Below, piece by piece: positions 54,959 to 59,742 of a stretch of DNA of 64,000 nt (position 1 is the stretch's first letter; each line of letters begins with the position of its first letter). The position numbers were made by a program. The stretch lies in NCBI RefSeq assembly GCF_045037415.1, contig NZ_CP173438.1, one strand, 5' to 3'. The DNA comes from Escherichia coli. GTDB lineage: Bacteria; Pseudomonadota; Gammaproteobacteria; Enterobacterales; Enterobacteriaceae.

Positions 54959-57900
54959 TAAGTTCGCTAAAAAACAGAACGGGGCCAAAAGGTCCCGTTT
55001 TTTTCGCCTTTATTTAGGAAAAGTGTCCAGAGGGGGCGAGGGTTATCGGGGAGTATAATTTCGCCATTCAGCAAGAATGGAAAGAATAATGCAAAGCGGA
55101 AAATGGATTTTGACCTCGCTGGTAATGACTTTTTTTGGCATCCCCATACTGGCGCAATTTTTGGCAGCGGTTGTTGCCATGCTGGGGGCCGGGCTTGCCG
55201 CTATTCTTGAGGTTTGCAATTTACTCTTTACGCCAACAATTTATCTTCTACTCAACGTCTTTATGCTGACGCTGGGGGCGATAATCATATTTTTCTCTGG
55301 TCGCGTGTGGGCTGGTGATAGCGCACCAGAAAAAAGAGAAATAGCCGCCTGGCGACAATGCTTTTTTCTCTTACCCGCGCTATTAACCCTGGTTGGCTGG
55401 ATAATCGCGCTACATCTGGCAGATTATCAATTTCGCCAGATGGGATCGGGCTGGTTGGCAAACCTTATGCTTTCCTGGCAGGGTGTTTTGTTACTCTCAT
55501 TAATCAGTGGCGACTACTGGTGGATAGTCATTATACCCGTTGGCGCGCATATCAGTTTTTCGCTGGGATACGGCTGGCCGACAAGGCATCCTTTAACCGG
55601 CACGTCCGGGCTACGTTGCCGTAACTTACTCCTGTTTCTACTTCTCTTACTTGGTTTTGTCGCTGGGTATCAGGCTTATTTATATAAACAGCTTAATCCC
55701 GGTGTCGGTGTGCGTGAAAATATTGATACCTGGGCCTGGCGACCCGATAAACTTAATAATCAACTGACGCCACTGCGTGGTAAACCACAAATTCAATTTA
55801 CGCAAAACTGGCCGCGACTCGATGGCGCTACGGCGGCGTACCCCATTTATGCCTCTGCATTTTATGCATTAAGTGTAATACCAGAGGATTTTCACGTTTG
55901 GGATTATCTGGATAACTCTCGTACGCAAGAAGCATATAACAAAATCGTTAACGGTGATGCCGATATTATTTTCGTGGCGCAACCTTCCGATGGGCAAAAA
56001 AAACGCGCTGAGAAATCGGGCGTCACTTTGCTGTACACGCCATTTGCCCGTGAAGCGTTTGTTTTCATCGTCAATGCGGATAATCCGGTTAATTCCCTGA
56101 CTGAACAACAGGTGCGTGACATTTTCAGTGGCGCAATTACCAACTGGCGCGCGGTTGGCGGTGACGATCAGGAGATCCAGACCTGGCAACGCCCGGAAGA
56201 CTCTGGCAGCCAGACGGTGATGCTATCGCAGGTCATGAAAAATGTCCGCATGATCTCGCCGCAGGAAACGGAAGTGGCAAGCGTGATGGAGGGAATGATT
56301 AACGTTGTTGCCGAATACCGTAATACAAAAAACGCAATAGGCTACACCTTCCGCTATTACGCAACACAAATGAATGCCGATAAAAATATAAAACTGCTAG
56401 CGATTAACGGTATTGCACCGACTGCGGAAAATATTCGCAACGACAAATATCCCTATATCGTCGATGCCTTAATGGTAACGCGGGAAAATACGACGTCAGA
56501 GACACAAAAATTGGTGGAGTGGTTTTTAACGCCGCAGGGGCAGAGTTTGGTGGAAGATGTGGGCTATGTGCCGATGGATAAAACGTTGCATTAAGCAGGA
56601 TTACAATATGGATATCATTAATATTTTCCTGAACGCGGCGAATGCCCTTTTTATCTATCAGCCGTTTATGCACGATCAGCGGGCGAGGGGGTAATTATGC
56701 ACCCCACTCCTGCCATGCAGGCATTAATTGAGCAGATATATCATATTTTTCGTCGTTATCCGGCGCCGCAGCAATTTGTGGTTTGTTGTGAATATTGTCT
56801 GAGTCAACAGGAACAAAAAGCATTACGGAATACATCGTTGCGAGCGATTCCTTATTCCTTAATCAATGCCTGGAATAGTAGTCCAGGACCTGATCCGCAA
56901 AACAGCGATGAGGTTCGTTATTTTCTGCCTTGTTTACTGGAGTTTGTTGCGCAGGGGCAATTTGACAATATTCACGAAGTATTTTCTCTACGGCGTATCA
57001 ACCTTGCCAGTAAAGAAAACTGGCGTGAGGATGAACGGGAAATATTGCAGCAATTTGCTTGCCAGTATATGACTGATTGGGTATCCGGGGATGAGGCTGT
57101 CGAATTACAGTACAAGCTGGAAATGTTTTTCCGTGCCGATATCGCTCTTTCGCCATTGCTTGATGCCATTATTTCAGTTCCCGGATTTTGGTCGGCAGCG
57201 TCTCTTGCCTGTTTATTGAATACGTATCGTGACGGTTATATCAGAGATAATCAGGACGATATCGATAAAGCCATTACCACTCAAACTAATACTTGGGCTA
57301 GTAATAATCAATCCATCCTGAAAGAACGCGCGCGGCAGGCGATTGAGAATCCGCTTAAGCAGTCCGAACAGGGCACACAGTATCAGGCCTGGGAAGACGA
57401 GTGGATGATTGATGAGTGTTTATGTGCCATGTATGACGCATCATCCGAATCATCAGGACATTAAAGATGAATAAAATCAGACTTTATATTTACCCTGTAA
57501 TTTTCGGTTTTGTTATCGTACCATTATTGGTATGGCCGACGGTTATTGCCTTAGCCGTACTTATATTCACGTTAACTTTTCTGGCTGAAATAATATTCTC
57601 CTTTCCGCTCCTGGTTGTGCGTATTTCTCTTCAGGAATTACAACTTGAGTTATTGGTTGAATATGCACTTTTTTTCAGTGTAATGGGTGGCATCGGTTGG
57701 CAATTCTCCCGCAGAACGCCTCCTGAATTAAAAAACAGGCTACATTGCTGGCTGGTTTTTTCTCCGGTCTATTTCTGGTTAATTCTCTCGAATTTCATTC
57801 TTTATATTTCTCCAGAGAAATCAGCGTTGCTGGAAAATATCCGAAATTTCTTTCTGACATTTGTCTGGCTTCCCCTGAATTTTTCCCCTTTTTGGCCGCA

Positions 57901-59742
57901 GCCGTGGACTGATTTTGTCGGCCCGATTAGTGCCCAGCTTGGTTTTGCGTTGGGATATTATTGCCAGTGGCGTAGCAAAAATAGAAGCCATAGGAAGAAG
58001 TGGGGCGATTGGGTAACGTGCTTAAGTTTGGCGATTTTAGCTCTGGGGCCGTTATTCAATTATTTACAATGAATAGTCTAAGGAATTCAAATAGCCCGGT
58101 TGCACTTCGCAACCGGGCATCATCCTTACGACGCCAGCGACAACCTCTGCTGCGTATATTCCATCAGCCACTGACTCACACGAGATTGTTGATCCGCATT
58201 TAGCCACATGCCTTGTTTCGTGCGACGCCACAGGGCATCGTCGGCGCGGCGGACCCATTCGTGGTCGACCAGATATTTCAGCTCCGCTTCGTAGAACTCA
58301 TGACCGAAATCTTCACCGAGGTCGCTTATCGCCCCTGCATTGCCGAGCAACAGTTCGCTGTTGCTGCCGTAAGTGCGCGCGTAGTGACGTGCCAGCGATT
58401 CGGTCAGGAACGGGTAACGGCGGCGCAGGCGGGCGGCGTAATCGTCACGGTCACCTTCAATGGCACCACCCGGCAGCACGCTCTCTTTCGTCCACGCCGG
58501 ACCAATGCCCTGATAATATGGCGTCAGTTTTTCCAGCGCGTGCTCCGCCAGTTTGCGGTAGGTGGTCAGCTTACCGCCGAATACCGACAGCAGCGGGGCT
58601 TTGCCGTTTTCATCATGGATATCAAGGGTGTAATCACGGGTAATGGCCTGCGGCGAGTCGGACTCATCATCACATAGCGGACGCACGCCGGAGTAGGTCC
58701 AGACGATATCGTCCCGGCTTAACTGCTTTTTAAAGTGCGTGTTATACACTTTCAACAGGTAATTGATTTCACTCTCTTCAATCTTCACTGCTTTTGGATC
58801 GCCTTTGTATTCCACATCGGTGGTGCCGATGATGGAAAACTCGTCCATCCACGGGATCACGAAGACAATACGTTTATCTTCGTTTTGCAGAATGTAGGCT
58901 TGCTTCTGGGTATGCACACGCGGCACCACAATATGGCTGCCTTTGATCAGGCGAATGCCATAAGGCGAAGGCAGATGCATCCCGTCGTCGAAAAATTGTT
59001 TCACCCACGGGCCGGTAGCATTAACCAGGCCGCGCGCCTGCCATGTATATTTTTTGCCGGTATCGATATCTTCCGCTTCCACAATCCACAGGCCGTTTTC
59101 GCGGCGAGCAGACGTGGCACGAGTACGAGTAAGCACTTCACCGCCTTTACGTACCACCATCTGGGCGTTGGCGAGTACCAGACGGGCGTCGTCTACCCAA
59201 CAGTCAGAATATTCGAATCCGCGCTTAATTTCCGGTTTTAACACTGAGTTTGCGCCAAAACGCAAACCGGTTGATCCCGGCAGGCTGGTGCGCTTGCCCA
59301 GATGATCGTACATAAACAGACCAATGCGAATCATCCACGCCGGGCGTAGATGCGGACGATGCGGCAGGCGAAAACGCATCGGGAAGGCGATATGCGGGGC
59401 CATTTTCAGTAGCACTTCACGTTCAGCCAGCGCCTCGCTGACCAGTCGGAATTCATAGTGCTCAAGGTAGCGCAGGCCACCGTGAATGAGTTTTGAACTG
59501 GCGGAAGAGGTCGCGCAAGCGAGATCCTGCGCCTCCAGCATCAGCACGGATAAACCGCGTCCAGCGGCGTCTGCCGCGATACCAGCACCATTGATGCCGC
59601 CACCTATCACAATCAGATCTTTGGTTTCCATGCTGCCCTCATTCACTTTCGTTAAAGTTCATAAATGTTCGTTATCGAACATATTAGCAAAGAATCGCGC
59701 TTTGGGTAACATTGAAAAAACATTTTAGAGTGATATGTATAA

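Follow-up and report, generated by a model that had tools for sequence, protein, structure and literature searches.

A block of genes between glgP and glpD of Escherichia coli encodes a membrane-anchored PstS-like protein and a paralogue of its membrane domain, possibly parts of an orphan ligand-sensing module

Orphan soluble periplasmic binding proteins act as co-sensors with identified kinase partners in the LuxP-LuxQ, TorT-TorS and ChvE-VirA systems, and two-lobed binding proteins of the PstS (PBP_like_2) type are the substrate-binding subunits of phosphate ATP-binding cassette (ABC) importers. Here we describe a block of three genes between glgP and glpD in a 64-kb stretch of Escherichia coli contig NZ_CP173438.1 (the window, to which coordinates refer unless a homologous locus is named). 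By sequence, the C-terminal 240 residues of the first product, p1, have the same two-lobed fold as PstS and keep its R-x3-S-G-[ST] anion loop. However, p1 differs from PstS: a six-helix domain, and not a signal peptide or lipid, anchors it, its score falls short of the curated family cut-off, its N-lobe ligand residues are replaced, and the best 80 loci of its family have no permease or ATPase genes nearby. Like LuxP, TorT and ChvE, p1 is a binding protein without transporter genes, and in Paenibacillus its homologue shows translational coupling with the gene of a sensor kinase; unlike them, p1 carries a multi-helix membrane domain of its own, joined to the binding domain, and has no linked kinase in enterobacteria, and the resemblance is best taken as functional analogy only. 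At the same site in K-12, yzgL (b3427) corresponds to the first ~73 codons of p1, but differs in being what a ~2.8-kb deletion left of an O157-type allele. The block is the sequence type 131 (ST131)-type allele of an old, strain-variable accessory operon, in which, tentatively and with less than even confidence, we propose that p1 would be an orphan membrane-tethered ligand sensor, the third product (p3) its paralogous membrane partner and the second (p2) a cytoplasmic partner.

Residues 249-485 of p1 match Pfam PF12849 (PBP_like_2) at E 2.4e-29, and solved PstS chains match p1 at E 6e-19. The scores against TIGR02136, the NCBIfam PstS model (118.8 bits; cut-off 206.6), and TIGR00975 (15.1 bits; threshold 205 bits) are both under threshold. 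Among 32 diverse members of the family, R369, S373, G374, S375 and Q376 are invariant or nearly so, and the alignment puts R369-x3-S373-G374-S375-Q376 on the R-x3-SGT phosphate loop that PstS proteins of known structure have. The N-terminal membrane domain has a confident six-helix predicted model, within which P20, W105 and Q196 are invariant across the family. The NCBI Prokaryotic Genome Annotation Pipeline (PGAP) names the product a phosphate ABC importer substrate-binding subunit, and the single match of p1 in PHROG, a phage 'phosphate transporter subunit', runs through the binding domain.

Full-length homologues of p1 occur across Enterobacterales and in other phyla. When one genome per species was scanned, the p1 binding-domain subfamily was found at at least 580 loci in Proteobacteria, Campylobacterota, Bacillota, Actinomycetota and Spirochaetes, and the best 80 loci were looked at in detail. 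Among these 80, the long membrane domain is present in Proteobacteria, Campylobacterota, Actinomycetota, Treponema and some Bacillota, and members from Bacillales and many Clostridia have a shorter N-terminal region of ~110 amino acids (aa), mostly without a match to the membrane-domain profile. No homologue of PstA, PstC or PhoU lies within ±8 kb of a p1-family gene in these 80 loci, which span many phyla, or in the enterobacterial loci; PstB matches near p1-family genes are generic ABC ATPases only, and the block itself holds no pstC or pstA permease, pstB ATPase or phoU gene. In Paenibacillus, five loci have a gene for a sensor histidine kinase that overlaps the start codon of the p1 homologue, and at seven loci in Bacilli and Clostridia, a gene for an XRE-type helix-turn-helix (HTH) protein lies directly 5' of it, the other neighbours within the 80 loci being diverse. 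The kinase overlap and the HTH neighbours are hints of a signalling role. Separately, in metagenome-assembled genomes of Helicobacteraceae (loci L039 and L054), the membrane-anchored PstS-like gene is present as two to four paralogues in tandem, with a conserved gene of 244 aa after them, and this array is an independent expansion of the p1 family.

The third gene is related to the first. Alignment of the p3 family with the p1 N-domain family by hhalign gave a probability of 97.2% (E 3.6e-11, 164 collinear columns) and covered the G-x-P-L-L motif of helix 1, a conserved Trp and the GxxIS/AxxLGY helix, and a hidden Markov model (HMM) of the p1 N-domain matches p3 at E 5e-9; p3 is therefore a copy of the membrane domain that stands alone and lacks the binding domain. 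Word-based searches placed p3 homologues in Escherichia only, to which the HMM search added Superficieibacter. In the allele of O157 strains, the gene before p3 encodes the binding domain as a lipoprotein, and its stop codon overlaps the p3 start codon; this arrangement suggests that binding and membrane modules can come as separate polypeptides. The second O157 binding protein and p3 are marginally closer to the second of two tandem Salmonella copies of p1 than to the first (62% vs 58%), a difference too weak to count as evidence of origin.

An open reading frame (ORF) scan of the window found three intact + strand ORFs between glgP and the convergent glpD. The features of the region are as follows.

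52514-54961, + strand: glgP, with its stop codon at 54959-54961
54978-55005, + strand: glgP intrinsic terminator, a hairpin (AACGGGGCC / GGTCCCGTT) followed by a T-run, read from the sequence
55054-55059, + strand: candidate block promoter on sequence only, a perfect -10 hexamer TATAAT 27 nt 5' of the gene 1 ATG
55086-56594, + strand: gene 1 (p1), membrane-anchored PstS-like binding protein, 502 aa (ORF; RefSeq coding sequence WP_122984432.1 in 100%-identical genomes)
55086-55700, + strand: p1 N-terminal membrane domain, about 205 aa, six long helices
55821-56531, + strand: p1 PBP_like_2 (PstS-type) binding domain, predicted periplasmic (Pfam PF12849)
56609-56694, + strand: 28-codon ORF, MDIINIFLNAANALFIYQPFMHDQRARG and a stop codon, in-frame remnant of the deleted 236-aa pX (from the sequence; its C-terminus matches pX)
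56697-57464, + strand: gene 2 (p2), predicted cytoplasmic all-helical protein, 255 aa (ORF)
57467-58072, + strand: gene 3 (p3), integral membrane protein, 201 aa, stand-alone paralogue of the p1 membrane domain (ORF; hhalign)
58094-58118, no strand assigned: GC-rich hairpin between the convergent p3 and glpD (terminator scan and sequence)
58126-59646, - strand: glpD

An initial annotation of this DNA had described three co-oriented ORFs of 505, 255 and 201 aa between the terminators of glgP and glpD, and they are present as described; an alternative gene 1 ATG at 55077 gives 505 aa. The operon-like layout that it proposed was borne out by the p2-p3 gap of exactly 2 bp, and the placement of the glgP terminator, of the TATAAT hexamer 5' of p1 and of a hairpin shared with glpD is consistent with it. 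A consensus scan placed an overlapping weak promoter site at 55061-55090. As predicted from its sequence, the hairpin at 54978-55005 ends the glg transcript and sets the block apart from the glg operon. The hairpin at 58094-58118 is assigned to glpD as its terminator because the T-run is on the glpD side; it is the only hairpin downstream of the block and probably ends the block transcript too. The same annotation had called the block AT-rich, which windowed composition confirmed: its guanine-plus-cytosine (GC) fraction is 0.453 vs 0.527, the lowest of any 3,087-bp stretch in the window, and only 0.16% of sliding windows are equally low, all of them overlapping the block itself. Gene by gene, GC is 0.476 in p1, 0.447 in p2 and 0.411 in p3 (0.51-0.55 in glgC, glgA, glgP, glpD, glpE and glpG), and GC at third codon positions (GC3) is 0.42-0.50 in the block vs 0.58-0.64 in these six flanking genes. 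A search of 54800-58300 against Rfam at E<=1 returned no RNA family. Many RefSeq E. coli genomes carry this DNA at 100% identity with intact annotated genes, which shows that the ORFs are no sequencing artefacts. What it had overlooked was a lost fourth gene (pX), the paralogy of the third ORF to the N-terminal half of the first and the prior cataloguing of the locus.

Comparison with 5,426 complete E. coli genomes by megablast revealed a polymorphic glgP-glpD site at which a few alleles recur.

Four-gene allele: p1, pX (236 aa), p2 and p3; pX is in 2,326 genomes, including N47-like strains with a fimbrial operon instead of p1
Window allele: the four-gene allele minus 622 bp inside pX; 671 genomes
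O157-type allele: p1, a second PstS-like protein with a lipoprotein signal (330 aa) and p3; 885 genomes
K-12 allele: yzgL only; 1,261 genomes
Fimbrial-only allele: a fimbrial operon, with the block absent

The block is present in an intact form of one kind or another in about three quarters of the complete genomes. O25b:H4-ST131 genomes match the window allele at 100% identity, and the 622 bp that this allele lacks correspond to positions 2226-2847 of a four-gene locus (L002), the junction being that of the 671 genomes above. The pX remnant keeps the last ~20 pX codons and contains the p2 Shine-Dalgarno sequence, GAGGGGG; because it is in frame and stops 2 bp before the p2 ATG, translational coupling to p2 may have been preserved. 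In some genomes otherwise identical to the window, the insertion sequence IS1 lies inside the block (E. coli R11, H1; ST131 strain 2017_APHA, H43). Strains N47 (L004) and GIMC1405 (L006) carry a chaperone-usher fimbrial operon in place of p1, some such strains keeping pX-p2-p3 and others a p3 fragment only.

In the O157-type allele, which occupies the same site, the first and last genes share 88% and 72% amino acid identity, respectively, with those of the window. The second PstS-like protein, which starts with MNKFTGVLLLGTALLAGC, a lipobox, stands in place of pX and p2, and the breakpoint of this exchange is within ~40 bp of the 3' end of the middle gene. The allele appears to be O-island 133. 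The only transcriptome mention of it that we found reports low expression (PMC2907692). MG1655 has only yzgL (b3427, 93 aa) at the site, in agreement with the initial annotation, which had also taken yzgL for the remnant of a solute-binding protein; this second point did not hold, since YzgL derives from the p1 membrane domain, its first ~73 codons being followed by an out-of-frame tail. On the O157-type allele, the K-12 junction maps as an internal deletion that starts early in p1, reaches the final ~60 bp of p3 and joins the 5' end of p1 to the 3' end of p3 out of frame. The K-12 state is therefore derived and, of the two origins that had been offered for the intact block, ancestral or acquired, the former is correct. 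The interval from p3 to glpD holds ~200 bp of sequence like repetitive extragenic palindromes (REP) in the K-12 and O157-type alleles (L013 8405-8700 and L003 3756-4052), and only the single hairpin in the window allele. Overall, this is an ordinary feature of E. coli that has been catalogued before: thousands of genomes carry annotations of the block, its O157 allele is apparently numbered as an island, and the site is a published hot spot ('hotspot A') that also takes a fimbrial operon (PMC12928451, PMC13185298). Literature searches by protein accession returned no mention of the block proteins, and those on yzgL returned incidental mentions only.

Outside Escherichia, p1 has the same position, flanked by glgP and glpD, in Salmonella, Klebsiella, Phytobacter, Pseudocitrobacter and Superficieibacter, where the homologues are full length (about 500 aa) and 50-55% identical. 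Klebsiella oxytoca has a p1 homologue at this site, Salmonella enterica has two tandem copies, and in Phytobacter and one E. coli, p1 is the sole gene there. Orthologues of pX with 53-73% identity are found in Escherichia, Klebsiella, Salmonella, Superficieibacter and Pseudocitrobacter, and the pX-p2-p3 trio recurs in Superficieibacter, again with a 2-bp gap between p2 and p3. No tRNA gene, integrase or mobility gene is present at the block, and the direct and inverted repeats that flank it are short ones at chance level only. Judged by these comparisons, gene 1 is ancestral at the glgP-glpD site in Enterobacteriaceae, and the genes downstream of it behave as exchangeable cassettes. The horizontal origin of the block as a unit that the initial annotation had proposed was thus not upheld, given p1 at the same site in six genera and the lack of mobility hallmarks.

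Other genes also occur at these loci. Superficieibacter sp. 1612_C1 (L023 9552-15677) carries, between p1 and pX-p2-p3, a gene for a 935-aa superfamily 1 (SF1) helicase fused to DUF2726 and a 252-aa gene. The helicase-DUF2726 protein resembles Mokosh MkoA and MkoC in PADLOC, and this insertion indicates that the site can take defence-like genes too. Salmonella (L010 6291-6815) and Pseudocitrobacter (L022 7421-7951) have an extra gene between glgP and p1 for an exported protein of ~175 aa; the two proteins are homologues, and E. coli lacks them. The last gene in the Klebsiella and Salmonella loci encodes a small 139-aa lipoprotein related to K-12 YbbD, and a DNA search for E. coli paralogues of the Klebsiella gene gave no match. 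Two candidate labels for pX were discarded. The name 'YbbD family' rests on ~45 N-terminal residues of NF007301, and the true K-12 YbbD resembles the 139-aa lipoprotein instead. A lead to DUF4279 immunity proteins (PMC9424270), which came from a precomputed 'faint' match of the Klebsiella and Salmonella pX, was not reproduced by direct Pfam scan, even at E<=10.

Between alleles, the ratio of nonsynonymous to synonymous divergence (dN/dS) is 0.16 for p1, 0.16 for p2 and 0.23-0.27 for p3, and 0.01-0.03 for glgP and glpD. The block genes are constrained, under purifying selection looser than that on the adjacent housekeeping genes. Synonymous divergence (dS) between alleles is unusually deep, at 0.33-0.38 and, for p3 against O157, 0.75. 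Compared with a K-12-like genome, glgA is ~99.7% identical, the 3' end of glgP (54400-55000) 95-97% and the 3' end of glpD (58126-59300) ~93%, and this gradual divergence into both flanks fits an old polymorphism shuffled by recombination.

The second gene belongs to a large unnamed helical family. p2 has no match in Pfam, NCBIfam, PADLOC or PHROG. When 1.8 billion representative proteins were searched with a profile, there were matches at E<=1e-3 to 802 clusters, whose members are ~240-270 aa long and ~22% identical to p2, with the consensus AY..F..Y....L.VC..CC...E..L...PLR.I..LL..Y...E.KYFLPRyLEL...W..eE..L..F and a conserved N-terminal motif, V-C-x2-(C)-C. The AlphaFold2 model of p2 has 12 helices at a predicted local distance difference test (pLDDT) score of 80.7, and its fold matches are uncharacterised proteins only. 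Close homologues are found only in Escherichia and Shigella. Genes of the wider family sit singly among housekeeping genes or as tandem paralogues, with two to three copies at loci L014 and L019, and no recurrent partner or toxin was seen near eight members, each looked at in one to three places. Kinship of p2 to DUF1266 (YbeR/YbeU), suggested by one Foldseek fragment match (E 3e-5) and a DUF1266 gene beside a Budviciaceae homologue, was rejected at an hhalign probability of 0.2%.

We propose, with the reservation stated at the outset, that these parts could work together as follows. The p1 binding domain would face the periplasm, because the paralogous O157 copy carries a lipoprotein signal, and would take a phosphate-like anion or a phosphorylated small molecule. 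As an orphan sensor and not a transporter subunit, p1 would relay ligand occupancy through its membrane domain, with which p3 may pair or which it may modulate; p2, and pX where present, would be the cytoplasmic partners, and the output of the module would be regulatory rather than nutritional. Type III secretion is reported to be reduced in an enterohaemorrhagic E. coli (EHEC) ΔOI-133 mutant (PMC3378721), which is compatible with a regulatory role.

Several observations weigh against a sensor module of this kind. The effect of ΔOI-133 is an undissected screen result on a different allele. The block is dispensable, the K-12 deletion being found in 23% and the loss of pX in 12% of complete E. 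coli genomes. Its proteins are not obligate partners of one another: p3 occurs without p2 in O157, p2 without p3 in Pseudocitrobacter, pX-p2-p3 without p1 in N47 and p1 by itself in Phytobacter. The N-lobe of p1 reads GATAA and SRT in place of the ligand motifs GSTT and GSG of E. coli PstS. The topology of p1 is awkward, in that a C-terminus outside and six helices also place the N-terminus outside, and the positive-inside count for the membrane domain is ambiguous. Finally, only a few related lineages, none of them enterobacterial, have the kinase and HTH neighbours.

The rival explanations are each weaker than a sensor module. That the three genes came together, and recently, from a low-GC donor as a horizontal island is unlikely in our judgement. 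The base composition of the block, lowest in the window in both GC and GC3, its absence or truncation in many strains and the readiness of the site to take a fimbrial operon, and in Superficieibacter a helicase-nuclease gene, would all fit such an island, but not the presence of p1 at one site in six enterobacterial genera, the orthology of pX in five at the identities given above, the 2-bp spacing of p2 and p3 that is kept in Superficieibacter or the lack of a tRNA gene, an integrase and flanking direct or inverted repeats. Moreover, the K-12 state is a deletion and not an empty site, and divergence fades by degrees on both sides, as expected of an old polymorphism that recombination maintains. 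We consider it just as unlikely that the block is an array of orphan immunity genes against Rhs, contact-dependent inhibition (CDI) or type VI secretion system (T6SS) toxins, in which p2, pX and perhaps the membrane proteins neutralise toxins and allelic diversity reflects an arms race. The deep allelic divergence and the exchange of cassettes 3' of p1 could be so explained, as could the tandem paralogues in the p2 family (two to three in L014 and L019) and the p1 family (two in Salmonella, two to four in Helicobacteraceae), a block dN/dS about ten times that of the flanking genes and the kinship of the last Klebsiella and Salmonella gene to YbbD, whose K-12 gene lies in the orphan region downstream of rhsD-ybbC-ylbH. 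However, neither the block nor at least 20 homologous loci examined contain a toxin-like gene, and p2, p3 and pX match no immunity family in Pfam or NCBIfam. Of the two leads on pX, the DUF4279 match in Klebsiella was not reproduced at E<=10, and the 'YbbD family' label covers ~45 N-terminal residues. A dN/dS of 0.16-0.27 is purifying overall and not diversifying, and a conserved PstS-like ligand pocket is unexpected in an immunity protein.

Less probable still is an anti-phage defence system or a set of decaying, functionless genes. For the former speaks the Mokosh-like SF1 helicase-DUF2726 gene at the site in Superficieibacter, but p1, p2, p3 and pX have no match in PADLOC-DB 2.0 even at E<=1, p2, p3 and pX have none in PHROG, and p1-p3 show no nuclease, nucleoside triphosphatase (NTPase) or other enzymatic domain in Pfam, NCBIfam or PADLOC. 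Decay would account for the frequent disruptions (the K-12 deletion, the pX deletion and the IS1 insertions) and for the low expression of the O157 allele (PMC2907692); against it, reading frames are intact in thousands of genomes, which, together with the dN/dS of 0.16-0.27, is evidence against pseudogenes. It is very improbable that p1 is a substrate-binding subunit of the phosphate ABC importer that works in trans with PstCAB. The PGAP name, the similarity to PF12849 and TIGR02136 and the matches to solved PstS proteins all point that way, but 118.8 bits is far under the 206.6-bit TIGR02136 cut-off, a six-helix membrane domain stands in place of a signal peptide, PstA, PstC and PhoU are never nearby in the best 80 loci, the N-lobe phosphate ligands are replaced, and E. 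coli has a canonical pstSCAB-phoU operon elsewhere.

A wider interpretation of the orphan sensor module, which we regard as doubtful, would be that the six-helix domain and the diverged PstS-like domain form a widespread class of membrane-tethered ligand sensors, or ligand-gated devices, that have no ABC transporter. In E. coli, this class would have spawned p3, which would partner soluble proteins encoded upstream of it (p2, or the PstS-like lipoprotein of O157), and allelic variation would tune outputs such as type III secretion. The remaining interest of the locus lies in this widespread, transporter-less family of membrane-anchored PstS-like proteins and in its membrane-domain-only paralogue, and the natural alleles (four-gene, three-gene, O157-type and K-12 deletion) are a ready allelic series for genetics.

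Elsewhere in the window, ~3.2 kb are missing relative to K-12, a loss that takes in rtcB entirely, the greater part of rtcR and the initial ~600 nt of rtcA (62149-62162; 61779-62114). The junction lies on a 14-nt repeat, CCGCGCCATGTTGC, that is found in both rtcR and rtcA of K-12, and the loss is therefore a deletion between short direct repeats. Of rtcR, the window retains the C-terminal ~128 codons only.

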